Source: Candidatus Woesearchaeota archaeon
GTDB taxonomy: Archaea; Nanobdellota; Nanobdellia; Pacearchaeales; GW2011-AR1
Direction of reading: 5' to 3'
Length of the DNA: 64,000 nucleotides
Assembly: GCA_964413095.1 (NCBI GenBank)
Contig: CAYPRJ010000002.1
Span: 563-64,562 of the forward strand
Both the position numbers and the translations under genes were made by a program. Shown piece after piece: positions 10,913 through 28,509 of the stretch (its first letter is position 1; each line of letters opens with the position of its first letter). Under the pieces are notes generated by a model that was not told where the DNA came from, ran no database searches, and saw only the letters and a program-made list of their open reading frames with translations.

Positions 10913-10964
10913 AAAAAGAATTAGTAATTCTAGTTTTTAAAATTTGTTATGAAAACAGTCTAAG

Positions 10965-13817: not shown

Positions 13818-13901
13818 ATAAAATGAACTTAACAAAAGTTTAAATAAATACCTTACTTTAAATACAATAATGCTTAAAAAACAGATGATGTTTTTAAAAA
13901 G

Positions 13902-14644: not shown

Positions 14645-14699
<55 letters not shown>

Positions 14700-14797
14700 T
14701 ATACTGAACGTTGATATGAGTTGAGGTTTAGCGATTTAAGTATCTAAGGATATAAAAATCACTTGTCTAAGTAGAAGATTAAATATTTTAAAAAAAG

Positions 14798-14804
14798 TTT
14801 ATAA
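14798..14804 (+). promoter_or_regulatory. putative archaeal TATA box (AAAAAGTTTATAAG) for cassette A
   Basis: TTTATAA lies 23 nt upstream of the ATG at 14827, with an A-rich BRE-like 5' flank. The same arrangement occurs at cassette B, implying a near-leaderless transcript. Confidence 0.45.
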
Positions 14805-14826: not shown

Positions 14827-15639
14827 ATGAAAAGAGGGATTTTTAACAGAGGACAAATAACTATTTTTGTAATTATTGCCCTGATTATTGTTGCTGTTGT
14901 AGTTTTGTTTTTATTTCTAAGAGGAGGAACTACTACAAAAATTGGTGGAGGGATTACAGAAGCAGATTCTGAAAGTTTTATGAAAACTTGTCTTGAAGAT
15001 AAAGTTAGAGGAGGAATTGGGATTATTTCTAATCAAGGGGGATATATTGAACCTGTTTTATACAAAGGAATTTGGTTTGATGAAGAAGGTCCAATAGATG
15101 TCTCTTATTTATGTTATACTAAGGAGGATTATGTCCCTTGTATAAATCAAGAACCATTATTAATTAAACACATACAAGATGAAATAAAAGATTACATTCA
15201 AGAAGATGTTGAAGAATGTTTTAAGAATCTGAAAAAAAGTTTAGAAAAAGGAGGTTATACAACTGAAGGAGAACTTGATAATTTTGATATTAAAATAAAG
15301 CCACAAGGTGTTATTATTGAAATAAACTCTGAACTTGTACTAACAAAAAGTGGAGAAACTTCAAGAAAAGATGGTTTTGAAATTACCTTTAAAAGTGGAT
15401 TTTATAATATAATAGAATTTGTTAAAGAAATTATTAAATTAGAACAATCAATGAGTAATTTTGATTATGCTACCCATATGGCAATATCCCCTAACTTTGA
15501 TATAAAAAGAATTACAACAAGTGATTTGTCAAAAGTTTATACTATTAAATCCCAAAAAACACAGAAGGTCTTTAGGTTTGCTGTTAGAGGAAGGGTAATA
15601 CCTCCTGGCTGGGGAATAACTTTAGAAGAGGAAGAATGA
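14827..15639 (+). CDS. cassette A, gene 1: pilin-like protein with class III (type IV pilin-type) signal peptide, 4 conserved Cys
   Basis: N-terminus MKRGIFNRGQITIFVIIALIIVAVVVLF (R-G-Q followed by a hydrophobic stretch). Paralog of 20278-21105, sharing QGG.IEP, YLCYT..YVPC..Q.PLL..HI..EIK.YI.EDV..CF..LKK and PPG[WY]GIT. Confidence 0.6.
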   Translation: MKRGIFNRGQITIFVIIALIIVAVVVLFLFLRGGTTTKIGGGITEADSESFMKTCLEDKVRGGIGIISNQGGYIEPVLYKGIWFDEEGPIDVSYLCYTKEDYVPCINQEPLLIKHIQDEIKDYIQEDVEECFKNLKKSLEKGGYTTEGELDNFDIKIKPQGVIIEINSELVLTKSGETSRKDGFEITFKSGFYNIIEFVKEIIKLEQSMSNFDYATHMAISPNFDIKRITTSDLSKVYTIKSQKTQKVFRFAVRGRVIPPGWGITLEEEE

Positions 15640-18600
15640 TGTTAAAAAAAAGTCTAAAAAAGAAAAAGGAAATGACTTTAATAGCTGTGGTAATATTTCA
15701 GATTTTTTTATTGGCAATGTTAGTTCCTGCAAATAGTTATTCAATTAATCAAATCACTAATTCAAAAAATTCAATTTCTGAAAAAGAAAAAAATGATAAA
15801 CATTTGTTGGGAAATTTAGGTAATTTTTTAATTAATTTAATTTCAATAAAACAAATAGGGACTGTTTCTGCAGAAACAACTTATTGTTGTGAAAAAAGAA
15901 AAGACGGTGAAGGAGGAGGATGGTGTATTGCTGTAGATGATTCCTCAAAGTGTGATGGTGAATATGGGTCTTCTCCTACATCTTGTGAATCAACTTCATA
16001 TTGTAAACTTGGAGTTTGTGTTTATGAAGAAACTGGAGAATGTACTTCTAATTCTATAAAAGCAGCTTGTGAAGAGGAAGGAGGAATTTGGGAAGATGGA
16101 ACAAGTGAAGAAGTTGATAAATGCAAAACAGGATGCTGCACACTTAATGACGGAACTGAAAAGAAATTTGTAAGCAAAGTTAAATGTGATTATTTGGGTG
16201 GAGATAGTTTTGATACTTCTGTTGCTCAAGGAGATTGTGTTATTTCTTCACAAGATATGGGAGCTTGTGCTCTTGATAATAATGGATGCGAATTTGTCAC
16301 AGAAGAAACTTGTGATGAATATGATGGCATTTATTATCATGGATATTTATGCACTCACCCAGATTTAAATACAATTTGTAAAAAACCGGAAGACAAGAGT
16401 GATATAGAAACTGTCTGTTATGAAGGAAGAGTTCATTTTATAGATAGCTGTCAACAAATAGCAAATGTTTATGATATGAACAAATGGAATAAGGAAAGTT
16501 ATTGGGAAACTTTTATGGACCCTTCCAGTAGTAGTATTTGTGGCAGTGATGAAAATGAAGGAAACATAAAGGATGATGCATGTGGAAATTGTAAGTATCC
16601 TTACTTAAGTATCTGTACAGATGCTGATGAAGTTGAAGATGCAAGCCCTGAACAAGGAAATTATATTTGCAAGGATTTAAGTTGTGGGGAAGTTGATGGA
16701 GAAGTTAGGAATAATGCAGAGTCATGGTGTGTTTTTGAGAATTATGTTGGAACTTTTACAAAAGAAACTACTCCTACAAATGAGGGGATAGAGTTAGATA
16801 CAAATGACGCATTAGGATTACGGGAAAGGCAAGCGATTTGGAAGGCATTAGTGACCTTAGAACATAAGTTTTCTAGTTGGGAAAATGCCAGAGATAGCAA
16901 ACATCAGTATCCTGGTGGTGCAATGGTTAGTAAATGGATAAATTGGTTGGAAGATTCTGAAGAGAATGGGGGAGTCGGTTTTACTGAGGGAACTGGAAAG
17001 GCATTTATGGAAAAGGCAATACAAGAAAAAACAGCGATTCTTCCTGAGAATATGAGTTTCAGTGCTGATACTGTTGGAAGTTCTCACTGGATAAAAACTT
17101 GTTCTAATGGAGAAGTAATAACTGAACCTTGTGGAGGTAATTCTTACAGAGGGAATATTTGTGTTGATATGACTGATGAAGGTAGTAGTTTTTCAGAAGC
17201 TAAATGTGTTGTAAATGATGGCTATGAATGTTTAAGACTTAATGAAGAACTAGAGCCTTATGAATGGACTGAAAAAGGAGAATCAATGATTAATCCAGAA
17301 GAAACAAAAGCAAAAAACAAAGAAATTTGTGAGGAAAATATTGATTATCCAAATTGCAGACTTCAATCAATAGCTACTGACTATTATTTCTTATTTGATG
17401 TTTGTGTTCCTGAATTTCCAATGGGACTCGGGTTTTGGGATACAACAGAAGAAACAATGAATGGCATATGTTCAATTGCAACTACTACATGCACAACAAC
17501 TTGGGAAAGAGGATTTGACAGAAAATGGAGTTGTATTGGAAATTGTGGTTGTTTGAGCCAGGAATTTGCAAATCAAATGAATGACCTTTGTGTTTCTTTA
17601 GGAGATTGTGGAGGTTATATTAATTATAATAAAGATTATACTGGAAGTGTAAAAGATGGATTTGAAACTTTTGATATTTCTGTATTAGAGGGTACTAGAC
17701 CCAAACATATTTTAAAAGAATATGGGCAAGAATTTACTGCTGATGGAGACATAAGTGAAGCAAGAAAAGAAATATATGAAGGAATAATAGGAAAGACTGA
17801 GGATAATAGAGAATCAAACTTACCTTCATTAAATGCCGCACAAAAAGCTATCATCGAGGAAATATCAGCGCAAATTGGAGAAACTGAAAAAGAATTTTTA
17901 AGTCCTTGGAAATTGGTTGGAGCGGGAGCAGCTGTTGCCGCAGCTATAACAGGGGCCATAATAACTACTGCTATAGTTGCCGCAGTTCCAGGCCTAACTA
18001 TAGCTTTTAGCATAACTGCTGCAACTTTAAGCGCTATTACTGGAGGATTATATACTGCATTAACTGGAACTCTTGCAGCAACTGCAGCATCCACTGCTCC
18101 AGTTCCTTTTATAGGATGGTTTATTGCAGCTGCTGCTGCACTTACTGCTGCATTCATAGCTCTTTGGACATTCATTGGAGGAGTAGGAGATACAAAAGAA
18201 GTTGAAGTTGAATTTGAATGTAATGCATGGAAAGCCCCACAAGCAAGTGAAGAACAATGTGAATTGTGTAACAATGACCCAGACGGACTTCCATGCAATG
18301 AATACAGATGTCATTCATTAGGAGAAGGGTGTAGAATAATAGGAGAAGATGAGTTATATGAAAATGAAACAACTGTTTGTTATTATGCTGGAGAAGGGGA
18401 TAATACTGCTCCATATATCATGAAGGACTCTATTGAAGGGGATTATCAGTTTATAACAGATAATCTTCCAGAAAATGTAGATTTACAGATTAAAAAATCA
18501 AATACAGAATGCATACAAGAAAATTCCAAAATTAGTTTTAAATTAAAAACAACAGATGGTGGTGGCGGGGAAGATGAATATGCTGTATGTGCTTATAATT

Positions 18601-19772
18601 GGGAATCTGTAGGTGTTAATCCAGAAAATAATTATGAAAATGTTCCTGAAGTTACTGATGGAGAATATTTTAATGGAGGAAGAGTTTTCGCAAAAACTCA
18701 TATTTTTGACAAAAGGCTTCCAGGAATTGATGAAGCAGAAAGTGTAAGTGGAAACCCTGGAAACAGAGAAGGAGATTTAAACATGTATGTGAGATGCATA
18801 GATTATGGGCAAGGCAATGATGGTGCTGGGAACTTCAATATTGAAGAATATGTAATTAACATTTGCATAACAGACAGACCTGATGAAGAAATTGCAACAA
18901 TAAATAAGTATCTTCCTAGTTCTGGTTCTTACATACCTTATGGAAAAAATGAATCTTCCCTACAAATTTATTTAAGTGAACCAGCTAGTTGTAGTTGGAG
19001 TGAAAAAGATGAGGGTTATGAAGAAATGAAGCCTTTTACGCTTTGTGAAGATAATTATAACAAATGTTCTTCAGGCATAAATTGTAAATGCTCAACTCTT
19101 CTTTCAGAATTAACACAAGAAGAAAATAAGATTTATATTAAATGTAAGGATACAAATGGTAATATAAATTTACAATCTTTTGAATATATAATAAAAGCTA
19201 CCCAAAGTCCTTTAGAAATAACATCAACTTCTCCTGAAGGTAAAATTAAAAGAGGTGGAACAGAAGGGGCAGTAGAATTAACAGCTACAACTTCAGGAGG
19301 AGCATATAATGGTAAATCAATATGTAGATATAAATTTATAAGGGGCTCTAATTTTGAGGGCTTAGGAGATGAATTTTATAATACTAATTCTACAAATCAT
19401 AAACAAGTATTTACAGAAGGACTTCCAGATGGAGATTATACTATATTAACAGAATGTAAAGATGAAGCTGACAATAAAGCTCAAAAAAATATTACTTTTA
19501 CTTTGGAGGTCGATGACTCCCCCCCAGTTGTGGTGAGAGCTTATAAAGATGGAGGAAACTTAAAATTAATAACAGATGAAAATGCAAGATGTTATTATTC
19601 TTTTAAAGATTGTAATTTTGGTTTTGATGATGAAGATGTAACTTCAATGACAACTGCTTTATCAAAAGAACACAGTGCAAAATGGATTGGTGGGAAAAAT
19701 TATTATGTTAAATGCGAAGATGCATGGGAGACAAGAAATTCCGGTTGTGCTATAAAAATTTCTACTGCTTAA
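15636..19772 (+). CDS. cassette A, gene 2: giant (1378 aa) cysteine-rich membrane/surface protein, no recognised family
   Basis: ATGA overlap with gene 1. N-terminal TM/signal; Cys-rich region (YCCEK, SCESTSYCKLGVCV, KCKTGCC, LGDCGGY). Central Gly/Ala/Thr-rich hydrophobic block (17914-18190). Then ECNAW...C.LCN...LPCNEYRCHSLGEGC and four ~100-aa repeats with conserved Cys pairs (EPASCSWS...YIKCKD..GN), ending PPVVVRAY...YYVKCED. Confidence 0.7.
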   Translation: MMLKKSLKKKKEMTLIAVVIFQIFLLAMLVPANSYSINQITNSKNSISEKEKNDKHLLGNLGNFLINLISIKQIGTVSAETTYCCEKRKDGEGGGWCIAVDDSSKCDGEYGSSPTSCESTSYCKLGVCVYEETGECTSNSIKAACEEEGGIWEDGTSEEVDKCKTGCCTLNDGTEKKFVSKVKCDYLGGDSFDTSVAQGDCVISSQDMGACALDNNGCEFVTEETCDEYDGIYYHGYLCTHPDLNTICKKPEDKSDIETVCYEGRVHFIDSCQQIANVYDMNKWNKESYWETFMDPSSSSICGSDENEGNIKDDACGNCKYPYLSICTDADEVEDASPEQGNYICKDLSCGEVDGEVRNNAESWCVFENYVGTFTKETTPTNEGIELDTNDALGLRERQAIWKALVTLEHKFSSWENARDSKHQYPGGAMVSKWINWLEDSEENGGVGFTEGTGKAFMEKAIQEKTAILPENMSFSADTVGSSHWIKTCSNGEVITEPCGGNSYRGNICVDMTDEGSSFSEAKCVVNDGYECLRLNEELEPYEWTEKGESMINPEETKAKNKEICEENIDYPNCRLQSIATDYYFLFDVCVPEFPMGLGFWDTTEETMNGICSIATTTCTTTWERGFDRKWSCIGNCGCLSQEFANQMNDLCVSLGDCGGYINYNKDYTGSVKDGFETFDISVLEGTRPKHILKEYGQEFTADGDISEARKEIYEGIIGKTEDNRESNLPSLNAAQKAIIEEISAQIGETEKEFLSPWKLVGAGAAVAAAITGAIITTAIVAAVPGLTIAFSITAATLSAITGGLYTALTGTLAATAASTAPVPFIGWFIAAAAALTAAFIALWTFIGGVGDTKEVEVEFECNAWKAPQASEEQCELCNNDPDGLPCNEYRCHSLGEGCRIIGEDELYENETTVCYYAGEGDNTAPYIMKDSIEGDYQFITDNLPENVDLQIKKSNTECIQENSKISFKLKTTDGGGGEDEYAVCAYNWESVGVNPENNYENVPEVTDGEYFNGGRVFAKTHIFDKRLPGIDEAESVSGNPGNREGDLNMYVRCIDYGQGNDGAGNFNIEEYVINICITDRPDEEIATINKYLPSSGSYIPYGKNESSLQIYLSEPASCSWSEKDEGYEEMKPFTLCEDNYNKCSSGINCKCSTLLSELTQEENKIYIKCKDTNGNINLQSFEYIIKATQSPLEITSTSPEGKIKRGGTEGAVELTATTSGGAYNGKSICRYKFIRGSNFEGLGDEFYNTNSTNHKQVFTEGLPDGDYTILTECKDEADNKAQKNITFTLEVDDSPPVVVRAYKDGGNLKLITDENARCYYSFKDCNFGFDDEDVTSMTTALSKEHSAKWIGGKNYYVKCEDAWETRNSGCAIKISTA

Positions 19773-19843
19773 TTTAAAATGACTCGCTAATTAGTATTTC
19801 TAGTGTTTATAAAATGTCCTTCACTGTTTTAAAAATAGCCTAT

Positions 19844-19936
19844 TTCATTCGCTAATAACAGGATAGAATTAATGCAAAACTGACAAAGATTAGTGATTAT
19901 TTGCGAGTAATCTGGGCAGACAGGCAAATTATTTTT
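19844..19936 (+). repeat. dispersed intergenic element, copy 1 (possible structured RNA)
   Basis: TTCATTCGCTAATAACAGGATAGAATTAATGC...TTATTTGCGAGTAATCTGGGCAGACAGGCAAATTATTTTT aligns with 25904-25995 at roughly two-thirds identity by eye. The TTCGC/GCGAG stem is retained or compensated in the other copies. Confidence 0.55.
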
Positions 19937-20248
19937 TAATTATAAATTTCACAGAAATACTCTAATACTTTTTTTGCAATTAATATACTACAAAAAATTT
20001 CTAGTTAAAAAAGAGTTTTAATTGATATTAATCATAATTAAAAGAATCTAATTTTGTGTTTATAATATTTATCAATATTTCTGCAATTAGATATTTTAGC
20101 TTACTAATACTTGCTTTCATATTTATGTAAAAGCTAATACAAATTAGAGTTTTCATTAATTAAAATTTATAATCAATTGTTAGCTTAGAGTTTATTAAAA
20201 CAAATGTAAAATTAGTTTATCTGAGTAAATACTATTTAAAGAAAAATG

Positions 20249-20256
20249 TTTATAAA
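20249..20256 (+). promoter_or_regulatory. putative archaeal TATA box (GAAAAATGTTTATAAA) for cassette B
   Basis: TTTATAAA lies 22 nt upstream of the ATG at 20278, the same spacing and flank as at cassette A. Confidence 0.45.
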
Positions 20257-20277
20257 CGAGAATTCCTTAAAAAAGAT

Positions 20278-21105
20278 ATGAATGGAAATTCAATAAAAAA
20301 AAGAGGAAATCAGAGATTTAATTATAAAAAAAATCTTATACAACAAAAACGAGGACAAGTTACTATTTTTATTATTATTGCTGTTATTGTTGTTGCATTA
20401 GGAGTTCTTGTTTATTTATTTTATCCTCAGATTAGAACAACTTTTGGAATTAGAGAAGAAACTCCGCAAAATTATATTGACTCTTGTTTAAATGAGAAAA
20501 TAAAAGAATCTGTTGAAATACTTTCTTTACAAGGTGGAAGTATAGAACCAGAAAATTATTTTTCTTATGCAGGAGAAAAAGTTGAATATTTATGTTACAC
20601 AAATGATTATTATGTTCCTTGTGTTGTTCAGCAACCTTTATTAAAACAACATATTGAGAGAGAAATAAAAAATTACATTGCTGAAGATGTTGTTAGTTGT
20701 TTTAATTCTCTTAAAAAAAATTATCAAAAAAAAGGTTATGATGTAAGTCTTACTTCAGGAAGTACAGAAGTTGAATTATTACCAGAAAAAATTGTAACGA
20801 GTTTTGAAAGGAAATTAACTTTAACAAAGCAAGAAACAGAAGTTTATGAAAACTTTGATGTAGTTTTAAACAATAATCTTTATGAACTTGTTAGTATAGC
20901 AAATAGTATTGTGACTTCAGAAACAGAAATTGGTGATACAGAAACAACAGCTTACATGAATTATTACCATTATTTAAAAGTTGAGAAGAAAAAGCAAAGT
21001 GACGGAACAACTATTTATATTATAACAAACAGAGATACAGGAAATAAATTTCAATTTGCTTCAAGGAGTATTGTATGGCCTCCTGGATATGGCATAACAA
21101 CTTAA
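20278..21105 (+). CDS. cassette B, gene 1: pilin-like protein with class III signal peptide (paralog of 14827-15639)
   Basis: QKRGQVTIFIIIAVIVVALGVLVYLF, plus the conserved blocks listed for cassette A gene 1. It ends in WPPGYGIT. Confidence 0.6.
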   Translation: MNGNSIKKRGNQRFNYKKNLIQQKRGQVTIFIIIAVIVVALGVLVYLFYPQIRTTFGIREETPQNYIDSCLNEKIKESVEILSLQGGSIEPENYFSYAGEKVEYLCYTNDYYVPCVVQQPLLKQHIEREIKNYIAEDVVSCFNSLKKNYQKKGYDVSLTSGSTEVELLPEKIVTSFERKLTLTKQETEVYENFDVVLNNNLYELVSIANSIVTSETEIGDTETTAYMNYYHYLKVEKKKQSDGTTIYIITNRDTGNKFQFASRSIVWPPGYGITT

Positions 21106-21106
21106 A

Positions 21107-22834
21107 ATGTTGAACAAAAAAACTGTGATAATTTTTGCAGGGATTTTTTTATTTTTAATAGCTGGAATTATTTCTGCACAAACAACTTCTTATTGTTGTG
21201 AGAAAACTGTTTCAGGAGCTTGGTGTCAAAATGCTCCTGAAGAAGAATGTAATCCTAGTTTTAGAAGCGTTCCAACATCTTGTGAAGCAACTTCTTATTG
21301 TAAGCTCGGAACTTGTGTAAATTCAGGAGAAGGAACTTGCATAAAAAATACTCCAAGAATTGTTTGTGAAAATGAAGAGGGAGTCTGGTATGAACAAGAT
21401 AAAGATGAACTTTCTCAGTGCCAGCTGGGATGTTGCTTGATGGGAGACCAAGCAGCTTATGTAACACAAACAAGATGCAAGAAATTATCTTCTATTTATG
21501 GTTTAGAAACAAATTTTCAAGCAAGCATTAAAAATGAATTAACATGTATTGCAAGTGCAACTCCTGATATTGAAGGAGCTTGTGTGATTGAAGAAGAAAC
21601 AGGAAGAACTTGCAGATTTATAACAAAAAAAGAATGTCAAGAAATTGGGGGAGATTTTAATGAAGGGTTTTTGTGTTCTGCTGAAGAACTGGGAGCTGAT
21701 TGTGGTCCAAGAGGTGGAACAACTTGTGTAGAAGGAAGAGACGCAGTTTATTTTTTAGATACATGCGGAAATTTGGCAAATGTTTATGATTATTCTTTGA
21801 TTGATGATACTGATTATTGGACTTATATTCAACCTCCTGAATGTGGAGATGGGGATGGAAATAAAAATTCTGAAACTTGTGGTTTATGTGATTATTATGC
21901 TGGAAGCACTTGTGGTGAAGGAAATGCAAAATACAAAAATTATATTTGCCAAGATTTAGGTTGTGAATGGGAAGGCGAAAAATATGAACATGGCGAATCA
22001 TGGTGTGTGAAAGCTAGTGCATCTGACACAGAATCAGAAGGACATAAACCTTTAGTTAGCTCAGGAGAAACAACAGAATTCAGTGATTTAGATTCTATTA
22101 GTTTAAACAATGCAGATAATATTCCAGGAAATAGAGATTTTAGACTTTTGTGCTATAATGGGGAAGTTATGGTTGAGCCTTGTGCTGATTATAGGCAAGA
22201 AGTTTGTGTTCAGGGAGAAGTTGGTTCAGGGAATAATGCATTTAAATCAGCTGTATGTAAAACAAATTTATGGAGAGATTGTTACAGCCAGGATAATAAA
22301 AAAGATTGTGAGAACACAGACAAGAGAGATTGTGTTTGGATTAAGGGTATAAGTATTTTAACAGGAGAGAATGGAGAGGAGCTAATTGTTAAAGAATCTG
22401 GAACTGGAGAAGATGCAAATGAAGAGTTAGTTGTAAAAGAAGAAGATGAAGAGGGGGTTGGTGCGTCTTGTGTTCCGAAGTATACTCCTGGATTTGACTT
22501 TTGGAAAGAAAATACAGAGGCAGCAGATTTATGCTCAATAGCAAGTGTAACATGTACTGCTTATTTTGAAAAAGGAGTTAGTGGAGAAATAGAGAGAGTT
22601 GTTACAACAGAAGAAGATTGGTTTGGAAAAAGAGAGGATGCAGAAATAGTCTGTTTTGATAAAAGCGGAGAATTAGTTGATGACTGGATTGAGAATAGAA
22701 TACATTTATGTTCTGCTCTTGGAGATTGTGGTCTGAGTGTAAATTATGTTGGAGGATATAGTTATTATGATAAAGAGGATCTTTATTCAATAATTGAAGA
22801 AGATGAAGAATCTTCAGAAAGCAGTTCAGAATAA
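21107..22834 (+). CDS. cassette B, gene 2: Cys-rich secreted/anchored protein, equivalent to the N-terminal ~45% of the 1378-aa protein
   Basis: Collinear with cassette A gene 2: YCCEK, SCEATSYCKLGTCV, QCQLGCC, YFLDTCGNLANVYD, NYICQDLGC, ESWCV and LGDCGLSVNY. Terminates about 20 aa after the LGDCG block with an acidic tail. Confidence 0.7.
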   Translation: MLNKKTVIIFAGIFLFLIAGIISAQTTSYCCEKTVSGAWCQNAPEEECNPSFRSVPTSCEATSYCKLGTCVNSGEGTCIKNTPRIVCENEEGVWYEQDKDELSQCQLGCCLMGDQAAYVTQTRCKKLSSIYGLETNFQASIKNELTCIASATPDIEGACVIEEETGRTCRFITKKECQEIGGDFNEGFLCSAEELGADCGPRGGTTCVEGRDAVYFLDTCGNLANVYDYSLIDDTDYWTYIQPPECGDGDGNKNSETCGLCDYYAGSTCGEGNAKYKNYICQDLGCEWEGEKYEHGESWCVKASASDTESEGHKPLVSSGETTEFSDLDSISLNNADNIPGNRDFRLLCYNGEVMVEPCADYRQEVCVQGEVGSGNNAFKSAVCKTNLWRDCYSQDNKKDCENTDKRDCVWIKGISILTGENGEELIVKESGTGEDANEELVVKEEDEEGVGASCVPKYTPGFDFWKENTEAADLCSIASVTCTAYFEKGVSGEIERVVTTEEDWFGKREDAEIVCFDKSGELVDDWIENRIHLCSALGDCGLSVNYVGGYSYYDKEDLYSIIEEDEESSESSSE

Positions 22835-22850
22835 GAAGAAAGTGGATAAA

Positions 22851-25655
22851 ATGGATAAAAAAGGAAAAGGAAGTTTAGCAATAAGCCAGATTTTAATTTT
22901 AATAGTAGGAATTATAGCAATAAGTTATGCTATTGGGAGTAGTGTTGGGGAAGTTAGTGGGCAAGGAACTAGTTTTAAATATGAGACTCAAACATCTGAT
23001 TGGAAGACATTAGAAGTTAAGACATATACTGTAGGACAAGAAGATGGCACTATAATTGTTAAATCAGATAGTGGAGATATAATAAGGAAGGATAACACAG
23101 GTTTTTATTTAGATAAAAATAATAATGAGAAAAAAGACCCTGGGGAAGATTACTTTCATCCTTGTTTTTATGATTTAGTTTATGGAAATTCTGAATCAAA
23201 ATACTGTGTTGGATCAGAGACAGAAGGAGCATATAAACAAAAAGCTCCAGAAGAAGAAATTCCTGAAGAAGAAAGTGAAACAGATTATTGGGCTACTAAA
23301 GATACACAAAGAGGACCTTCTAAAGAAATTGAAACAGAAACAGAACAATCCTCTGATGATTCTTCTACTAGTTTGCCTGCTGCATTTACTACTGCATATA
23401 GTACTTACCAAGCATTTGAAAGTGCAGTTGGGAAATTAAAAGGAATCGGAGATGCAGGAGAAACATCTTTAATTTGTGGGGAAGATATACCTCCCTCTGA
23501 TCCAAGGTGTCAGGGTAAAGAACCTGGAAGTGAAGCAACTCCTGCTGGAAAAACAGATGCAGGAAATATTGCAAAAGCAGTTGGAGGAGATCTTGTTGCT
23601 CAAACATTTGATGTGGGAAATGTTATAGGAAATCCTGAGAAAACTCTTGCAGATGCTATATCTACTGAAAAGTTACCTGGTGACAAAACAGAATATTTCT
23701 TTAAAGATGGTTCTTCAGTTATTCTTGATAAAAATAATAAAGTTACTCAAATAGATACTGGACTTCCTGTTAAAGGAACAATAGCTGGATCAGCTTTAGA
23801 AAATTGGTTTAATGCTAATTCAGCAGTAGCAAACAGTGTTGGGCATATAATAGATGGTGCAGTTATTGCAGGAGGAATGTTAATATTTAGAAAAGAGATT
23901 AAAGACTTGCTTGGTGGTATTTTTGGAGAAGAAGGAGAAGGATGGGCAAGAGGTTTATCTGTTGCACTACCTGTTGCAGTTTTTGGAGTTGAAACAACTG
24001 TGGGTTTATTAAAAAAAGGAGGTTTAATAGGTGGAACAACAGGCACTACTGCAGGAGGTTGGGCTATTGGGTTAGGAATAACAGCAGTAGTAACAGTTGT
24101 AACTTTTTTAGCACATTACAAAACTTATGACCAAAAAACAGTTGTGTTTGAATGCTTACCTTGGCAACCAGATACAGGAGGAGCAGATTGTGATAAATGT
24201 AACCAACAAGGAATTCTTCCATGCAGTGAATATCAATGCAGAAGCTTAGGACAAGGTTGTGAACTTTTAAATGACGAGGAAAGTGGAGAAGCTGTTTGTG
24301 TTTATGTTAGCAGAGATGATTCAGAATATCCGACAATAGAAGCTTGGGAAGATGTTTTAACAAGTGGATATGAATACTCTCCAGATAATGCAATTTCTCC
24401 TCCAGACAGAGGTGTTAAAATAATTAATCCTGAATCAAGTGATGGATGTATTCCTGCATTTACTGCATTAAACTTTGGAATAGAATTAAACGAGCCTGCT
24501 CAGTGTAAAATAGATACAACAAGAAAGCAATCTTATGAAGAAATGAGTTTCACTATGAGCAGTGGTTTGTTCAAAGAAGAACATATTTACTCTTTAAGTT
24601 TACCTTCTCCTTCATCTTTAGAAGCAGAAGGAATAGAAACTGAAGTAGGAGGAGAACAAAATTTATATGTAAGATGCCAGGACGCAAATGGAAATTCTAA
24701 TCCTGCAACATTTATATTTAAATTTTGTATAGAAGAAGGAGCTGACACAACACCTCCTTTGATAGTTTCAACTGACTTATTAAATAATATGCCTATTGCC
24801 TATAATCAGAGTACAATAAATTTAAATCTTTATGTGAATGAACCAGCAGAGTGTAGTTGGAGTCGCAATGACCAAGCTTACGAAAATATGGAAAATAAGA
24901 TGGGTTGTTCATTGGCTGATTCTGTAAATGACATGAATGCTCAGGGACTTTATACATGTACAACAACTTTAACAGGAATAAAAGACGGTTTAAACAATAA
25001 ATTTTATTTCAGATGTAAAGACCAGCCAAGTGCAGAAGAAAGTAATAGAAACACAAATGTAGAATCTTATGAATTCACAATAAAAGGAACTCAGCCATTA
25101 GCTATTACATCTTTGAGTCCAAATGGCACAACAATAAAAGACTCAACAACAGATGTTAAAGTTACTTTAGAAGCTGAAACTTCTGCTGGGTATAATAAAG
25201 GAGAAGCAACTTGTTATTATAAAGAATCAGATGAAGCTGAAAGTGCTTATTCTATGTTTTTAGAAACAGGAAGCTATCAACATAGCCATGAATTATGGCT
25301 TAAAACAGGAGAACACAGTTATGATATCAAATGTGTAGATTTAGGAGGAAATTCAGATTATGGGGAAATAACATTTGAAGTTGAAACAGATACAAATCCT
25401 CCTGTTGTTGTGAGAGCTTATCATGAAGATACATATTTAAAAATAATCACAGATGAAAAAGCAGAATGTGTTTATGATTTTGTTGATTGTAATTATGCTT
25501 TTGACGACGGATTATCCATGACTACTACAAATGATGTAAATCACTTCACAGAATGGAAAACAAACAGAAATTTCTACATTAAATGTAGAGATGAATATGG
25601 CAGAGAACCTCGCCCAGATGAGTGCAGTATAATAGCAAAACCTTTTCAAATTTAG
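22851..25655 (+). CDS. cassette B, gene 3: membrane protein, equivalent to the C-terminal half of the 1378-aa protein
   Basis: Own N-terminal TM (GSLAISQILILIVGIIAISYAIG); a unique Gly/Thr/Ala-rich region; a TM cluster. Then ECLPW..C.KCN..GILPCSEYQCRSLGQGC and four Cys-pair repeats (EPAECSWS, FYFRCKD), ending PPVVVRAY...FYIKCRD. I place the start at the ATG at 22851; the track start at 22794 is TTG and overlaps the upstream gene. Confidence 0.7.
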   Translation: MDKKGKGSLAISQILILIVGIIAISYAIGSSVGEVSGQGTSFKYETQTSDWKTLEVKTYTVGQEDGTIIVKSDSGDIIRKDNTGFYLDKNNNEKKDPGEDYFHPCFYDLVYGNSESKYCVGSETEGAYKQKAPEEEIPEEESETDYWATKDTQRGPSKEIETETEQSSDDSSTSLPAAFTTAYSTYQAFESAVGKLKGIGDAGETSLICGEDIPPSDPRCQGKEPGSEATPAGKTDAGNIAKAVGGDLVAQTFDVGNVIGNPEKTLADAISTEKLPGDKTEYFFKDGSSVILDKNNKVTQIDTGLPVKGTIAGSALENWFNANSAVANSVGHIIDGAVIAGGMLIFRKEIKDLLGGIFGEEGEGWARGLSVALPVAVFGVETTVGLLKKGGLIGGTTGTTAGGWAIGLGITAVVTVVTFLAHYKTYDQKTVVFECLPWQPDTGGADCDKCNQQGILPCSEYQCRSLGQGCELLNDEESGEAVCVYVSRDDSEYPTIEAWEDVLTSGYEYSPDNAISPPDRGVKIINPESSDGCIPAFTALNFGIELNEPAQCKIDTTRKQSYEEMSFTMSSGLFKEEHIYSLSLPSPSSLEAEGIETEVGGEQNLYVRCQDANGNSNPATFIFKFCIEEGADTTPPLIVSTDLLNNMPIAYNQSTINLNLYVNEPAECSWSRNDQAYENMENKMGCSLADSVNDMNAQGLYTCTTTLTGIKDGLNNKFYFRCKDQPSAEESNRNTNVESYEFTIKGTQPLAITSLSPNGTTIKDSTTDVKVTLEAETSAGYNKGEATCYYKESDEAESAYSMFLETGSYQHSHELWLKTGEHSYDIKCVDLGGNSDYGEITFEVETDTNPPVVVRAYHEDTYLKIITDEKAECVYDFVDCNYAFDDGLSMTTTNDVNHFTEWKTNRNFYIKCRDEYGREPRPDECSIIAKPFQI

Positions 25656-25903
25656 AGCTTTGGTGGATTCCTGTTTATTTTTTTATTTTATCACCTCTTT
25701 TTATGATACAAATTAAAATTGTAAAATTATAAATTAAACATCGTTGTTTCTTTATCAAATCTAAAGAATGTAAAATTTTTAACTATCTTTATTAAATCTA
25801 AAATCTATTTAGTTTATTCATTAAAATTCCGTCTTCTATGAGTATCTCTGATACTTATAAAGGGTATTCTTATTTTTCAATAACTTGGCTCACTTCATTC
25901 GCT

Positions 25904-25995
25904 ATTGATAATATAATTAATGCTAAAACCAACGAGGATTGCAGTTATTTGTGGATTAATTTGAGCCAATAGGCGAACTATTTTTCATTCAAAAA
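25904..25995 (+). repeat. dispersed intergenic element, copy 2
   Basis: TTCATTCGCTATTGATAATATAATTAATGCTAAAACC...GTTATTTGTGGATTAATTTGAGCCAATAGGCGAACTATTTTT occupies the same position (about 250 nt after the giant-gene stop, versus about 70 nt for copy 1) and the same orientation as copy 1. Confidence 0.55.
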
Positions 25996-26167
25996 ACTCA
26001 TCTGAGATAGTTCTATTAAATCTAAAATAATCTGTGAGGAACGAGTAGGAAATTAATAATTTCCCATGGTTTCATCAGAGCCTAATTTAGCTAATATTTT
26101 TAAATTATAGTTTTCTTTTTTATTGAAAGGAGGAAAAGTTTAAAAGTCTTAAAAGTTAGAAGAAAGC

Positions 26168-26371
26168 ATGGAACAAACCACTCTTGAATCAGTTCAAAAA
26201 GAGATAGAATCTCTAAAAAAATTAGTTATTGCTATGCAAGAAACTATTTCTGATTGTTTTTTAACAGCTGAAGAGGAAGAGAATCTTGAAAGAGGGTTGA
26301 AAGAACTTGAAAAAGGAGAAGCAGTTTCTCTTCAGGATTTAGAACTTGAAAGAAAAAATGTTAGAAATTAA
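26168..26371 (+). CDS. putative type II antitoxin (small helical protein upstream of RelE-like toxin)
   Basis: 67 aa; overlaps the downstream toxin gene; the C-terminal LERGLKELEKGEAVSLQDLE resembles addiction-module antitoxin tails. Confidence 0.45.
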   Translation: MEQTTLESVQKEIESLKKLVIAMQETISDCFLTAEEEENLERGLKELEKGEAVSLQDLELERKNVRN

Positions 26372-26612
26372 ACTCTCTAATATTTCTAAAAAATTTTTAA
26401 AAAAATGTGATGAAATTCTCTATAAGAGAATTATAAAAAAGATAAAAGAACTTGTTAAGCAACCATTTCCCCCTGATTCTGTGAGAATTATTAATAGGAA
26501 AGAAAGAGTATTTAGAGTGAGAATTGGAAGTTCTAGAATAATCTATGCTGTATTTAAAGAGAAAAATTTAATTTTTATTTCAGAAATAAATAAAAGAAGT
26601 AAAATCTATTAA
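26346..26612 (+). CDS. relE: RelE/ParE-family toxin (type II TA)
   Basis: 88 aa; ...VFRVRIGSSRIIYAVFKEKNLIFISEINKRSKIY matches the RelE/StbE core pattern (yR.RvGdYRiiY.i......i.i..i.hR...Y). Confidence 0.6.
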   Translation: MKEKMLEIKLSNISKKFLKKCDEILYKRIIKKIKELVKQPFPPDSVRIINRKERVFRVRIGSSRIIYAVFKEKNLIFISEINKRSKIY

Positions 26613-26617
26613 AAAGC

Positions 26618-27073
26618 ATGAAAAAGAGGGAACTGCAAAGAAATAAAAAAGCACAAATGAAATTGTCTTTTGGAATGATTTTTTCAATAATTCTTATAAT
26701 AGTTTTTGTTGCATTTGCTTTTTATGCAATTCAAAAGTTTGTTGGGTTTCAAAAACAAATAACTATAGAAACATTTGCTGAAGATTTACAAGAGGATATA
26801 GATACTGTTTGGAAAAGTTCTCAGGCATCTCAGGAAAAAGAATATTCTTTGCCAAAAAAAATAGAAGAAGTTTGTTTTACAAATAAAGATGATTTTCAAA
26901 ATATGTATTTTGAATCTTCTGAATATGTTGCTGGAAAAAAAATAGAACATTTAAACATAGAAAAAATCGTCGAAGATAAAGATCCTTTTTGTATTAAAAC
27001 TATTAATGGAAAAGTTAAGATGATAATTAAAAAAGATTTTGGTGAATCTTTGGTTAGTATTGAAAAAAATTGA
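26618..27073 (+). CDS. pilin-like protein (class III signal peptide)
   Basis: N-terminus ...RNKKAQMKLSFGMIFSIILIIVFVAFAFYAI ([KR]-[GA]-Q followed by a hydrophobic stretch). First gene of a tightly packed four-gene operon. Confidence 0.5.
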   Translation: MKKRELQRNKKAQMKLSFGMIFSIILIIVFVAFAFYAIQKFVGFQKQITIETFAEDLQEDIDTVWKSSQASQEKEYSLPKKIEEVCFTNKDDFQNMYFESSEYVAGKKIEHLNIEKIVEDKDPFCIKTINGKVKMIIKKDFGESLVSIEKN

Positions 27074-28000
27074 ATGATGAGAAAAAAGGGGTTTCAAATG
27101 TCTTTTGCATGGCTTTTTGCAATTATTGTAGGAGGTTTTATATTATTTTTAGCAATTTATGCTACTACAAAAATCGTTAATATTGGAGAGTATGAAATGA
27201 GTGCTGAAACACAAAAAGAAATAGGTGTTTTATTAAATCCTCTTGAAACAGGAGTAGAATCAGGAAAAGTAACTTCTATGAGTATTAAAGGAGATACTAG
27301 AATTTACACACAATGTTCCAATACAAGTTTATTCGGAAAACAGATAATAAAAATATCACAAAAAAGTTTTGGGCAATGGACTGAAACATTAGAAGGAGCT
27401 TCATTCAAAAACAAATATATTTTTTCTGAAGATTTTGCAGAAGGAAAAAAGTTTTATATTTTTTCAAAACCATTTGAATTTCCATTTAAAGTAACTGATT
27501 TAATTTACCTGGGTTCTGCTTCACAAACATATTGTTTCTTAGATGCTCCTGATAATATTGAAAATGAAATAAAATTATTAGAACTGCAAAATGTAAACTT
27601 AGAAAATTGTTCAAATAAAGATGCTAAAGTTTGTTTTGGCTCTGTTTCAGAGAATTGTGATATAGAAGTTAATTATCCTGGAAAATTTGTTAAGAAAGAT
27701 AAAGAGAAAATGTATTTTGAGGGTGATACTTTAATGTATGCTGCTGTTTTTTCAACACCAGAAGTTTATGAATGCCAGGTTGAAAGACTAATGAAAAGAG
27801 CTTCTCAGTTAGCTTTGTTGTATAGAGATAAAGCGAATTTTGTTGCCAGAGAAGGCTGCAGTTCAAGTTTAAACAGCGAACTTTTGCAATTAAGTAATCT
27901 TGCAAAAAGTGTTGAAAGTTCTTCTGATTTAATTGGAATAGCAAATATTGTGGAAAAAATCAAAGAAAAAAACGAGGATGCTTATTGTAAATTATGGTAA
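27074..28000 (+). CDS. pilin-like protein (class III signal peptide), Cys-containing ectodomain
   Basis: MMRKKGFQMSFAWLFAIIVGGFILFLAIYA (K-G then a hydrophobic stretch); 308 aa with multiple Cys residues. Confidence 0.5.
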   Translation: MMRKKGFQMSFAWLFAIIVGGFILFLAIYATTKIVNIGEYEMSAETQKEIGVLLNPLETGVESGKVTSMSIKGDTRIYTQCSNTSLFGKQIIKISQKSFGQWTETLEGASFKNKYIFSEDFAEGKKFYIFSKPFEFPFKVTDLIYLGSASQTYCFLDAPDNIENEIKLLELQNVNLENCSNKDAKVCFGSVSENCDIEVNYPGKFVKKDKEKMYFEGDTLMYAAVFSTPEVYECQVERLMKRASQLALLYRDKANFVAREGCSSSLNSELLQLSNLAKSVESSSDLIGIANIVEKIKEKNEDAYCKLW

Positions 28001-28509
28001 AAAAAGCACAAATGAAAATTCAGCAGATGGCGTTTATGCTGATAGCTGTGACTTTATTTTTTGTTATGGCTGGTATGCTTGTTTTGGTTTTTAGATTTTC
28101 TGGATTAAGGGAGAAGGCAACACTTCTTGAACAAGAAAATGCCATGCTTTTAGTAAGTAAACTTGCAAATTCTCCTGAGTTTTCATGTGGAGAAGCTTTT
28201 GGAAACAGAAGAACAAATTGTATTGATGCTGATAAAGTAATGATGTTAAAAGAAAGTATTTCTAAATATATTGGTTTTTGGGGTGTTACAAATATAGAAA
28301 TTAGAAAAATTTACCCTGAATCATATGAAAATACAGAATGTGAAGTTGGAAATTATCCTGATTGCTCAGTAATCAAAATACGTTCTGGTGAAACAAAAGG
28401 TATAGGAGTAGCGAACTTTGTTTCTTTATGCAGAAAAGAGCTCTCGCAAGGAAATACTTATGATAAATGTGAATTAGCTAAATTAATTATAAGTTATGAA
28501 GAAAAATGA
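27994..28509 (+). CDS. pilin-like protein (class III signal peptide)
   Basis: MVKKAQMKIQQMAFMLIAVTLFFVMAGMLVLVF. Overlaps the upstream gene by 7 nt. Confidence 0.5.
   Translation: MVKKAQMKIQQMAFMLIAVTLFFVMAGMLVLVFRFSGLREKATLLEQENAMLLVSKLANSPEFSCGEAFGNRRTNCIDADKVMMLKESISKYIGFWGVTNIEIRKIYPESYENTECEVGNYPDCSVIKIRSGETKGIGVANFVSLCRKELSQGNTYDKCELAKLIISYEEK

Follow-up and report, generated by a model that had tools for sequence, protein, structure and literature searches.

An anciently duplicated gene cluster encoding small pilin-like anchor proteins and very large disulfide-rich surface proteins in Pacearchaeota and Woesearchaeota

Background

The fimU-pilVWXY1E minor pilins, which with PilY1 form a tip or priming complex in bacterial type IVa pili, and the GspHIJK pseudopilus tip in type II secretion are well established and provide a reference for the locus described here. 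In Methanococcus maripaludis the Epd pilins have KGQ[VI] processing sites, and the sites of EppA substrates are KGQV, KGQI and RAQI (PMC4371748). The Sulfolobus bindosome comprises large non-pilin surface proteins that carry class III signal peptides and are assembled by a dedicated PilB/PilC pair (PMC4371748). Type IV pilus-like genes have also been reported in Woesearchaeota (PMC6642349).

Organisation of the locus

The window analysed here is a 64-kb stretch of DNA and all coordinates are positions within it. The ORF listing gives two paralogous modules, A and B, between 14827 and 25655, with all ORFs of the first-pass annotation found where it had placed them (↓, predicted processing site):

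14827..15639, plus strand: g1A, 270 aa, N-terminus NRG↓QITIFVIIALIIV... (ORF, family alignment, N-terminal logo, AF2)
15636..19772, plus strand: g2A, 1378-aa membrane-anchored Cys-rich surface protein (ORF, alignment, AF2)
20278..21105, plus strand: g1B, 275-aa paralog of g1A, N-terminus KRG↓QVTIFIIIAVIVV... (ORF, alignments; B-position orthologous group)
21107..22834, plus strand: g2B-N, 575-aa secreted Cys-rich head (ORF; plain Sec-type signal ..IISA↓QTTSYCCEK)
22851..25655, plus strand: g2B-C, 934 aa (N-terminal TM, acidic linker, TM hairpin, Cys knot, four Ig-like repeats)

Module A is g1A coupled to g2A, and module B is g1B followed by g2B as two ORFs in different reading frames. Gene 2 had been described as one very large protein, which is true of copy A but not of copy B; the same annotation, in its list of checks, had already given gene 2 of copy B as two ORFs. 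The g1A and g1B proteins share 34% identity over 241 aligned aa (E=4e-46), and the blocks QGG.IEP, YLCYT..YVPC, EIK.YI.EDV..CF..LKK and PPG[WY]GIT proposed as common to both are seen in their alignment. The g2A protein is 35% identical to g2B-N over 328 aa and 28% over a further 226 aa, and 33% identical to g2B-C over 555 aa.

The conserved unit is a translationally coupled pair, a g1 of ~260 aa and a secreted or membrane-anchored g2 of ~1200 aa. As previously noted, the g1A stop and the g2A start overlap in ATGA and a 1-nt spacer lies between g1B and g2B-N, both read directly from the sequence. The coupling suggested on this basis was reinforced by related genomes, where the two genes either overlap at the g1 stop and g2 start or are at most 20 nt apart in 64/78 A pairs and 39/69 B pairs.

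Both modules also share the following non-coding features:

14798..14804, plus strand: TATA-like box TTTATAA, 22 nt 5' of the g1A ATG (read from the sequence)
20249..20255, plus strand: TATA-like box TTTATAA, 22 nt 5' of the g1B ATG (read from the sequence)
19790..19967, plus strand: non-coding repeat, copy A (matches 25838-26018)
25838..26018, plus strand: non-coding repeat, copy B (matches 19790-19967)

The equal TATA spacing that had been claimed is therefore exact, and an A-rich (BRE-like) stretch precedes both boxes. Each module is followed by ~0.5 kb without ORFs (19773-20277 and 25656-26167), and the conserved element described in these spacers was recovered as the repeat, whose copies are 75% identical over 172 nt (local score 63; the highest of 200 shuffles reached 41). 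The repeat gave no match in Rfam and no fold signal.

The pilin-like g1 proteins

The g1 proteins combine a prepilin-type N-terminus with a predicted extracellular, disulfide-bonded alpha/beta domain. In g1A a flexible linker joins the class III-like N-terminus to an alpha/beta ectodomain with two predicted disulfides (AF2 pLDDT 88). Six residues, Q10, T12, C55, C96, C105 and C131, are invariant in an alignment of 28 family members, which extends to the family the four Cys already recognised as shared by the two copies. The N-terminal logo gives the motif [KR][KR][G/A/S]↓Q-[VI]-T-I-F followed by ~22 hydrophobic residues: position -1 is G, A or S in 99% of the sequences, -2 and -3 are mostly K or R, and +1 is Q. 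The class III signal with Gln at +1 read in the two window proteins thus holds throughout the family and equals the KGQ[VI] sites of Epd pilins.

The likeness to the EppA-processed Epd pilins of M. maripaludis comprises the [KR][GA]↓Q[VIL] site, a hydrophobic helix of ~20 residues and the clustering of several genes. However, position +5 of g1 is Phe and not Glu, and the protein of ~260 aa has a flexible linker, its globular fold differing from those of known pilins. In the AF2 model a disordered Pro/Gly linker parts the TM helix from the globular domain, whereas pilins have a continuous alpha1. No Pfam pilin or class III model matched g1; Foldseek with the confidently predicted fold gave no PDB match and no pilin among its matches, and g1A had no PDB match by sequence either. 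The description of g1 as pilin-like is supported for the N-terminal motif, and the predicted fold of the protein is not a recognisable pilin.

The large cysteine-rich g2 proteins

Four parts make up the g2 proteins, namely a Cys-rich head of novel type, a membrane hairpin rich in small residues, a Cys knot and a set of four Ig-like domains:

15873..17639, plus strand: g2A Cys-rich N-terminal ectodomain, residues 80-668 (conserved Cys columns; AF2)
16758..17060, plus strand: g2A head insert of ~100 aa, residues ~375-475 (alignment occupancy 0.03-0.2)
17907..18188, plus strand: g2A Gly/Ala/Thr-rich uncharged hydrophobic block, residues 758-851 (hydropathy scan)
18198..18395, plus strand: g2A membrane-proximal Cys knot EC..W...C..CN...LPC.EY.C.SLG.GC (near-invariant C, W, P, Y, S, L and G columns)
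18411..19772, plus strand: g2A four Ig-like beta-sandwich repeats, each with a Cys pair (AF2, repeat HMM cross-matches)
23955..24119, plus strand: g2B-C TM hairpin
24135..24308, plus strand: g2B-C Cys knot (module HMM)

The TM block, knot and four repeats first described by eye are all present, and of the dozens of Cys (66 in g2A, 41 in g2B-N and 25 in g2B-C) almost every one falls in a conserved column when 41 sequences are aligned. The motif PPVVVRAY, previously taken as the protein end, instead opens the fourth repeat. In AF2 the g2A head consists of beta-hairpin/helix modules. Its insert is missing from nearly all orthologs, is predicted to be helical with low confidence (pLDDT <50) and has no match in Pfam. 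The Gly/Ala/Thr-rich block, read here as a membrane hairpin or hairpins, is moderately conserved, and the HMM of the Cys-knot module matches only g2A and g2B-C in the window. The N-terminal TM of g2B-C is homologous to that of g2A, and these segments carry conserved polar residues (QI.LL...A.SY.I).

Searches of Pfam, NCBIfam and PDB with the Cys-rich head were without match. The C-terminal repeats gave only tandem Ig/FN3 matches in Foldseek; Big_13, DUF4625 and Big_3_3 match some members of the g2 family, mostly below threshold, and the g2 proteins of the window reach 17-18 bits against a Pfam threshold of 27. Apart from these Ig-like matches the giant proteins lie outside characterised families, as had been supposed. 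They resemble the bacterial Ig-like repeat adhesins of these three models in that the C-terminal third forms four beta-sandwich domains with the end motif Y.[IV].C.D..GN. They differ from them in the Cys pair of each domain, in the attachment of the chain on the C-terminal side of a membrane hairpin and Cys knot, and in the additional novel Cys-rich head of ~590 aa.

An extracellular location of g1 and g2 is indicated because of the conserved Cys pairs, the charges around the TM segments, which fit an outside location of both ectodomains, the Ig-like C-terminal fold, N-glycosylation sequons rarer than in cytoplasmic controls, and the neighbouring genes. The latter encode an S-layer-like protein, a conserved neighbour in 18 loci, and other membrane proteins with Cys modules.

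Downstream genes and extent of the cluster

The first-pass annotation had set the limits of the cassette at 14827-25655. Both modules lie inside, but the conserved unit of about nine genes ends at 29012:

26168..26612, plus strand: toxin-antitoxin pair, a 67-aa antitoxin-like ORF and an 88-aa ParE-family toxin (ParE_toxin 29.1 bits, cutoff 23)
26618..27073, plus strand: pl151, small protein, N-terminus [KR][GA]↓QMKLSFGMIFS (ORF, conserved N-terminus)
27074..28000, plus strand: pl308, N-terminus [KR][GA]↓[FY]xxxSFAWLFAIIVG, 8 Cys
27994..28509, plus strand: pl171, N-terminus [KR][GA]↓QxKIQQMAFMLIAVTLFF, 6 Cys
28506..29012, plus strand: pl168, N-terminus K[GA]↓QEE[MI]VGFALII, 4 Cys

The toxin-antitoxin pair is an insertion outside the conserved cluster, and only two related loci have one. 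The modules are followed by the four small genes, whose class III-like N-termini ([KR][GA]↓Q/F/Y) are as conserved as those of g1. In many genomes the cluster runs straight into them, the first lying 2-41 nt after the last g2 (one locus has a 3-nt overlap) in 15 of the 27 loci with small genes. Across the window such N-termini are confined to the g1/g2/small-gene cluster. Against the Pfam pilin and class III models the small proteins gave one weak Pilin_N match (1/68 sequences). These conserved pilin-like genes directly downstream strengthen the tie to type IV pilus-like biology that had been proposed.

The arrangement resembles fimU-pilVWXY1E and GspHIJK in that four unequal pilin-like genes (151, 308, 171 and 168 aa) stand beside genes for very large surface proteins in one operon. 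There is, however, no relation in sequence or fold, and vWA and beta-propeller domains are absent from g2. The majority of g2 proteins are anchored in the membrane, and the large-protein module is present as two duplicates, each paired with a g1 of its own.

Distribution and age of the duplication

At least 598 occurrences of the g1/g2 families were found among the species-representative genomes that bear Pacearchaeota, Woesearchaeota or Nanoarchaeota in their titles. The gene order is the same, usually with primase and PCNA directly before the cluster. The A and B positions form separate orthologous groups, in parallel for g1 and g2, and the duplication therefore predates this radiation; the groups and gene layouts across relatives agree with the earlier view of an old duplication with both copies maintained. 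The head of copy B became a separate secreted protein. Its split is the normal state and not an assembly error, with 72 related ORFs for the split g2B, and the standalone g2B-N family comprises 1939 clusters, none of them annotated. A distant lineage has a single pair of overlapping g1 and g2 genes in a different neighbourhood, and its g2 (P0039) is without the TM hairpin, which means that g1 can be the sole anchor of membrane or pilin type.

Possible function of the cluster

Tentatively, and at somewhat less than even confidence, we read the cluster from its sequences as a lineage-wide membrane-anchored surface complex of Pacearchaeota/Woesearchaeota-type DPANN that would use the type IV filament pathway. 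A prepilin peptidase would cut six class III-type proteins, both g1 and the four small ones, after G, A or S, leaving Gln at +1, and through that pathway their hydrophobic N-terminal helices could then form a bundle, either a short pilus-like one or one close to the membrane. The cognate g2 would be held by its g1, with Cys-rich heads and Ig-like arms displayed outside the cell. In function such a complex may parallel the minor-pilin/PilY1 tip complex of bacterial type IV pili or the Sulfolobus bindosome. With the latter it shares prepilin-type N-termini on proteins far larger than pilins, each N-terminus leading through a tether to a globular domain. In contrast to the bindosome there is no homology to substrate-binding proteins, and no Bas-like ATPase or platform genes are found in the neighbourhood.

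The absence of a Pfam pilin match, the linker and fold of g1, the Phe at +5 and the lack of nearby machinery count against the type IV filament reading. The machinery that the first-pass annotation had named as worth seeking (prepilin peptidase, FlaI/PilB-type ATPase and FlaJ/PilC platform) was found neither in the window nor in the 10 kb on either side of the cluster at 80 related loci, EppA/Epd machinery included, and no candidate major pilin was identified. Moreover, the membrane anchors present in most g2 proteins fit poorly with travel on a filament tip.

A less probable alternative is a static scaffold of the envelope that has no relation to type IV filaments, its g1 and g2 being membrane proteins with ordinary signal anchors. 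The conserved g1 Q/T and g2 Q/N/S/Y helix residues would make helix-helix contacts in the cell's own membrane, and the complex would space or anchor the S-layer, as do SlaB or FlaF/FlaG. The lack of pilus machinery nearby, the polar residues of the g2 N-terminal TMs, the flexible tether after the g1 TM and the S-layer-like neighbour all suit a scaffold, as do a core genome family with fixed synteny and sequon depletion, which suggests tightly packed protein interfaces. Conservation along g2 is likewise even and fairly high in the alignment, with no hypervariable tip. However, a basic pair followed by a near-absolute G/A/S at -1 and an equally strict Q at +1 is predicted by a peptidase site and not by helix packing, the same kind of N-terminus is found on four adjacent small proteins, and a TM-less g2 exists.

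The even conservation of g2 also argues against a fast-evolving host-specific adhesin. It likewise counts against a further, improbable explanation, an episymbiont apparatus for host contact or membrane bridging, where the Cys-rich head and Ig arm would hold two cells together and the Gly/Ala/Thr-rich block would enter the partner membrane as a fusion or insertion peptide. An uncharged small-residue-rich block of ~95 residues beside a rigid Cys knot is compatible with this, and so are the two maintained specialised modules and the carriers, small-genome DPANN archaea, although their symbiotic lifestyle is putative. Nevertheless g2 has no structural likeness to any viral or cellular fusogen in PDB or BFVD, the block is among its less conserved parts and is missing in P0039, and the charges on its flanks suit a normal hairpin lying in the membrane, with KKGG as the cytoplasmic loop of g2B-C. 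That unrelated adhesin genes are neighbours by chance, with g1 and g2 non-interacting and a duplication devoid of functional meaning, is very improbable given the widespread stop/start overlaps, the pairing kept in the distant lineage and the parallel A/B orthology.

Conclusions

The gene set is real and anciently duplicated, and its proteins fall outside every described family. Hundreds of tiny Pacearchaeota and Woesearchaeota archaea have kept it at one and the same place in the chromosome. Within a complex using the type IV filament pathway, the displayed surface would most likely serve cell-cell, cell-substrate or envelope-anchoring contact through a conserved ligand and not a rapidly changing host receptor. 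The cluster is a strong candidate for a surface structure by which these archaea make contact with their surroundings or hosts.

Arrangement of the duplicated modules

The chromosome segment in the window is archaeal and of low GC content (about 29%), and its genes include those for ribosomal proteins, FtsZ, class I LysRS, PCNA and an intein-containing primase. The first-pass annotation had described two modules of the same architecture at 14827-25655, and this arrangement was confirmed, every ORF being present on the plus strand. In the list below g1 is the small pilin-like protein and g2 the giant Cys-rich surface protein, which in copy B is made up of two ORFs.

14827-15639, plus strand: g1A, ORF of 270 aa
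15636-19772, plus strand: g2A, ORF of 1378 aa
20278-21105, plus strand: g1B, ORF of 275 aa
21107-22834, plus strand: g2B-N, ORF of 575 aa
22851-25655, plus strand: g2B-C, 934 aa counted from the ATG, the frame being open from 22794

The gene junctions read in the sequence are also those noted before, namely an ATGA overlap in copy A, which is preceded by the purine-rich gaagaggaagaa, and a single-base spacer in copy B. The equal TATA spacing is exact, TTTATAA lying 22 nt before the ATG of both g1A and g1B. The products of the two copies are clearly related: g1A and g1B share 34% identity (E=4e-46), and residues 53-366 and 476-669 of g2A align with g2B-N and residues 839-1373 with g2B-C, at 28-35% identity.

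Each module is followed by about 0.5 kb without ORFs, and the conserved element that had been reported there proved to be a 172-nt repeat. Its two non-coding copies (about 175 nt; 19790-19967 and 25838-26018) share one orientation, one copy following each module, and are 75% identical, whereas the proteins that they follow are 33% identical. Stops occur in all six frames, and a metagenome pattern scan gave chance matches only. As the repeat matches nothing in Rfam, shows no excess folding energy and is absent from 83 related loci, whose spacers are short, neither a known RNA nor a relic of the duplication is supported; a genome-specific repeat or regulatory element, seen in two copies only, is more likely.

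Other features of the segment can be mentioned. The primase gene (10965-13835, minus strand, 956 aa) contains an intein, which has a LAGLIDADG homing endonuclease domain; the primases of relatives have 410-512 aa. Between PCNA and the g1A promoter (14645-14700) there are about 18 units of a perfect (TTA)n microsatellite. Moreover, two Rfam tRNA matches on the minus strand (40471-40578 and 55202-55321), of 108 and 120 nt and missed by ARAGORN, are probably intron-containing tRNA genes.

Distribution and age of the duplication

A search with g2A returned 40 proteins of about 1200 aa, none with an annotation; those of named source are all from Candidatus Pacearchaeota. The search with g1A returned 52 proteins of about 260 aa. 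An exhaustive g1 profile search reached 7080 cluster representatives at E<=1e-3, of which 597 passed E<=1e-30; nearly all of the 150 best matches have 250-290 aa. A separate profile of the Cys-rich head matched 1939 clusters, none of them annotated. When one genome per GTDB species was scanned, at least 598 stretches were confirmed, with titles naming Pacearchaeota, Woesearchaeota, Nanoarchaeota or Nanoarchaeia, a few plain 'archaeon', one 'Parvarchaeum' and one 'Aenigmatarchaeota'. No relatives were found among the 2.9 million viral contigs of IMG/VR, which indicates a cellular family.

ORFs were called in 80 related loci from other genomes, and g1 and g2 were located in them with HMMs built from the family alignments A1 and A2. 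The canonical order is g1A, full-length g2A, g1B and g2B-N, with g2B-C following 0-5 kb later. PCNA is upstream on the same strand in 51 loci, mostly directly adjacent, and the primase is present in 48. The gene pair is kept in related genomes, and it is a coupled one: in 64/78 A pairs and 39/69 B pairs the start of g2 overlaps the stop of g1 or is no more than 20 nt away from it, which is the arrangement of translational coupling that the junctions had suggested. In a distant lineage (locus L094, on a 617-kb contig, 9204-13231) there is a single unduplicated and overlapping g1+g2 pair in another neighbourhood, its g2 (P0039, 1076 aa) being without the membrane hairpin described below. These layouts make the g1+g2 pair the basic unit.

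The division of g2 in copy B is recurrent, with an N-half of about 500-600 aa, a separate C-half of about 700-900 aa and often intervening genes. The 81 sources (80 loci and the window) hold 72 standalone N-halves, 41 standalone C-halves and 87 full-length g2, and a fused copy B was seen in few genomes only. A frameshift or assembly artefact was rejected because the identical split exists in dozens of independent genomes, so the split g2B of the window is the usual state and no error. The N-terminal TMs of g2B-C (..SQILILIVGIIAISYAIG..VSG) and g2A (..FQIFLLAMLVPANSYSI..) are homologous, and g2B-N has a plain Sec-type signal ending in ISA/Q..SYCCEK (here and below a slash separates -1 from +1); together these indicate that the B form arose by the Cys-rich head moving into a gene of its own. 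In about a dozen genomes the g2B halves flank the gene of a protein of about 160-290 aa whose ...[AS]GC motif is lipobox-like (L014 15893-16378, L022 16014-16652, L035 15215-15904 and L070 8166-8912 are examples); this protein is absent from the window, and seven of these proteins are detectably interrelated. Two loci have in this place a polytopic membrane protein of about 336 aa (L039 15457-16467, L040 15475-16488) which by eye resembles a GlcNAc-1-phosphate transferase.

The best match in another genome belongs to the same positional class for 71/78 g1A, 67/69 g1B, 87/87 full-length g2 (head comparison) and 68/72 g2 N-halves. Positional classes A and B are orthologous groups, and the duplication is therefore ancient, older than the sampled radiation, with both modules retained. 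The opinion that an old duplication is maintained in both copies, formed by eye on the window, is in this way borne out across the 80 loci and the window.

The small protein g1: signal and fold

The N-terminus of g1 is class III signal-like, as had been proposed. In archaea this prepilin-type signal is described by a FlaFind-type rule (short basic N-region, [KR][GA] at -2/-1, cleavage and a hydrophobic stretch of about 20 residues), to which the N-termini conform over 281 sequences. K/R is found at -3 in 79% and at -2 in 84%, and position -1 is G in 69%, A in 21% and S in 9% (G/A/S 99%). Then follow Q-V/I-T(92%)-I(81%)-F(94%), some 22 hydrophobic residues, a basic residue and a Pro/Gly-rich linker, the +1 Gln being invariant in the 28-sequence alignment and in the N-terminal logo. 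The Methanococcus pilins processed by the peptidase EppA have the sites KGQV, KGQI and RAQI, and the peptidase requires the +1 Gln (PMC4371748). Their -2 to +2 pattern is that of g1; however, EppA-type substrates and bacterial pilins have Glu at +5, where g1 has Phe in 94%.

The pilin character does not extend to the fold. In the AlphaFold2 model of g1 (family alignment, pLDDT 88) a TM helix at 8-33 and a disordered segment at 34-44 precede a separate alpha/beta domain, and not the long continuous N-terminal helix packed on a beta-sheet or sandwich which defines pilins. Foldseek against the PDB gave no match below E=1e-3 (best E 1.8e-3, TM below 0.16) and no pilin, pseudopilin or archaellin among its matches, and the g1 sequence profile matched no PDB sequence. 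Curated pilin and class III models likewise had no g1 match in single-protein scans at E<=1 (Pfam) and 0.1 (NCBIfam), and no Pfam family, these models included, recurred across 28 g1 members (25 families listed). The N-terminal logo and the searches without a fold match characterise g1 as a protein whose N-terminus is of the prepilin type and whose domain has an unrecognised fold; the four invariant Cys are predicted to form two extracellular disulfides. An MltG/YceG endolytic transglycosylase was considered and rejected: g1B scored 16.6 bits against an NCBIfam cutoff of 103.4, g1A had no match, and MltG was not among the Foldseek PDB matches of g1.

The downstream pl genes

Four small genes with class III-like N-termini lie downstream of the modules.

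26618-27073, plus strand: pl151, N-terminus [KR][GA]/QMKLSFGMIFS
27074-28000, plus strand: pl308, N-terminus [KR][GA]/[FY]..[IM]SFAWLFAIIVG
27994-28509, plus strand: pl171, N-terminus [KR][GA]/Q.KIQQMAFML
28506-29012, plus strand: pl168, N-terminus K[GA]/QEE[MI]VGFALI

These N-termini are highly conserved, prepilin-like and in agreement with the FlaFind-type rule, with Q at +1 in pl151, pl171 and pl168. A rule-based scan of all window ORFs found class III-like N-termini confined to the cluster, where six proteins carry them. A weak Pilin_N match was obtained in 1/68 pl sequences (E 0.036).

The pl genes abut or overlap one another. They were found in 27 loci, and in 15 of these pl151 starts 2-41 nt beyond the last g2 gene, on the same strand (with one 3-nt overlap). 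In the window the 0.5-kb spacer and an inserted toxin-antitoxin pair (26168-26612) come between g2B-C and the pl genes; the toxin of this pair matches ParE with 29.1 bits against a cutoff of 23. The conserved unit is thus larger than the two modules and comprises about nine genes. Spacers of locus L001 (14515-15140 and 16910-18213) hold MNT/HEPN toxin-antitoxin pairs inside the cluster, and pairs of ORFs of about 100 aa were seen in the same spacers of L010, L016 and L066; the cluster spacers may be a recurrent landing site for toxin-antitoxin-like modules.

Architecture of g2

The architecture of g2 was derived from hydropathy, alignment and an AF2 model (pLDDT 71.5; domain-wise 75-95). An N-terminal TM is followed by a Cys-rich head of about 590 aa built of beta-hairpin/helix modules, by an acidic variable linker and by an uncharged Gly/Ala/Thr-rich block of about 95 residues, whose flanking charges fit a putative membrane hairpin that has its two flanks on the outer side of the cell. 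The last TM is immediately followed by a nearly invariant seven-Cys knot, and this by four beta-sandwich repeats, all of which have a Cys pair and the end motif Y.[IV].C.D..GN; the modelled strands cover model residues 848-1200 with pLDDT mostly 75-95. The head of g2A has an insert of about 100 aa (residues ~375-475; nt 16758-17060) which occurs in almost no ortholog, is predicted to be helical with low confidence and had no family match. Conservation is even across head and arm (0.45-0.55 per 40-residue block), and no hypervariable region appeared in these blocks.

The claim that the giant proteins stand outside recognised families survived the searches, since Pfam, NCBIfam, PDB and Foldseek yielded matches to the arm only, all Ig-like. 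Foldseek (PDB, BFVD) found only generic tandem Ig/FN3 proteins, with E down to 1e-8, and no g2 match was given by NCBIfam or PDB sequence profiles. The arm has the tandem beta-sandwich fold of the bacterial Ig-like families (AF2, Foldseek), but it misses the Pfam gathering thresholds of Big_13, Big_3_3 and DUF4625 (17-18 bits for g2A and 13 for g2B-C, cutoffs 27). Across 41 g2 members Pfam returned Ig-like families only, with Big_13 in 17 (E<=0.1; best E 1.1e-6), DUF4625 in 11, Big_3_3 in 6 and Y_Y_Y in 4. The module HMMs match only g2 proteins within the window, and the S-layer models of Pfam (S_layer_C/N) match neither g1 nor g2.

Two other ideas about g2 were discarded. A viral or cellular fusogen, or a viral origin, was rejected because there is no fold match and there are no IMG/VR relatives; fusexin/HAP2 and viral class I-III fusogens were not among the 50 listed g2 Foldseek matches (PDB, BFVD). 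In addition, g2B-C has a KG/S motif in this genome and was dropped as a class III protein, as its orthologs are without a conserved -1 Gly.

Probable extracellular location and envelope neighbours

The conserved Cys pairs, the fitting flanking charges and a depletion of sequons point to an extracellular location of the cluster proteins. N-glycosylation sequons (N-x-S/T) are depleted family-wide, with observed/expected ratios of 0.49 in g1, 0.40 in the g2 head and 0.65-0.73 in the remaining g2, and of about 0.5 in pl151, pl308 and pl171. The controls gave 0.96 for cytoplasmic PCNA, 1.00 for primase and 1.23 for the neighbouring S-layer-like protein, and sequons are enriched (1.2-2.0) in this last protein, in a 429-aa membrane protein and in pl168. 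The depletion suggests that these surfaces would meet the glycosylation machinery and that selection keeps them bare.

The surroundings of the cluster are an envelope island. The 884-aa product of 29744-32398 (plus strand), rich in Thr/Ser/Asp, matches the S-layer outer domain at both ends (PF05124, S_layer_C, E 2.4e-10) and is probably the S-layer protein; its gene is a conserved cluster neighbour in 18 loci and is preceded by an HVO_A0114-type HTH gene (29009-29356, minus strand). Upstream of the cluster, 7719-9008 and 9062-10912 (both minus strand) encode type I membrane proteins of no Pfam family, which begin with a signal peptide, have a TM at the C-terminal end and a tail that is basic or Pro-rich, and are conserved neighbours in 25 and 38 loci. 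They carry membrane-proximal Cys modules, C..QGG.VC......C...VCC.G.C; their identity with the g2 module is not supported, because the module HMMs match g2 only.

Comparison with known systems

Three known systems resemble the cluster in part. The likeness to EppA-type archaeal pilins is limited to the signal and that to the minor-pilin/PilY1 module of bacterial type IV pili to gene organisation, and with the Sulfolobus bindosome the cluster shares a prepilin signal on non-pilin proteins. Genes of PilY1 tip adhesins lie beside about four minor pilin genes, as g2 lies beside pl151, pl308, pl171 and pl168; however, PilY1 has a C-terminal beta-propeller or an N-terminal vWA domain, and g2 has neither (Pfam, NCBIfam, Foldseek). 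The cluster lacks at least one tested defining feature of each of the three systems. No description of the g1, g2 or pl families was found in the literature searched. Judging from its sequences, the cluster would be a class III-signal surface assembly built from new protein families. At least three families are new (g1, the g2 Cys-rich head, and the g2 knot with its Ig arm), and the four pl proteins probably represent four further new small families.

Possible mechanism

A prepilin peptidase would cut the six class III-type proteins, the helices of which would enter a type IV filament pathway and give a short pilus-like or membrane-proximal bundle. Each g1 would hold its own g2, and the Cys-rich heads and Ig arms would be displayed where they could touch a conserved ligand or envelope partner. 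Such a filament-pathway surface complex displaying g2 is, as a whole, a tentative reading to which we give somewhat short of an even chance. Genes for a prepilin peptidase, a FlaI/PilB ATPase or a FlaJ/PilC platform were not found within the 64-kb window, nor was a T2SSE-type Walker A protein within 10 kb of the cluster in 80 loci. This lack of pilus machinery nearby favours the main rival: a static scaffold of the envelope, working without filament machinery, whose conserved polar helix residues would be intramembrane contacts. The tether after the g1 TM, the membrane anchors that g2 itself possesses and its even conservation argue in the same direction, and we nevertheless consider the scaffold rather doubtful. 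An apparatus inserting into the membrane of a host is very unlikely, having no structural support.

The filament-pathway complex has also a bolder form, which is quite unlikely: the nine-gene cluster would build a previously unseen and lineage-defining surface organelle of Pacearchaeota/Woesearchaeota, with a short pilus-like core of six prepilin-type proteins carrying two different giant disulfide-locked modules, whose small-residue hydrophobic hairpins and Cys-rich heads would engage the envelope of another cell. If this were true, the organelle would physically underlie contact or exchange between cells in the DPANN group that is the largest and the least understood.

Few uncultivated archaea are as widespread as Pacearchaeota and Woesearchaeota. 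Over hundreds of species the cluster keeps its sequence, gene order and place in the chromosome, and every member of it is annotated as 'hypothetical'. It offers a defined peptidase-site prediction and paralogous modules with a testable division of labour, and supplies concrete candidates for the surface apparatus of these archaea, including targets for antibodies and cryo-ET.
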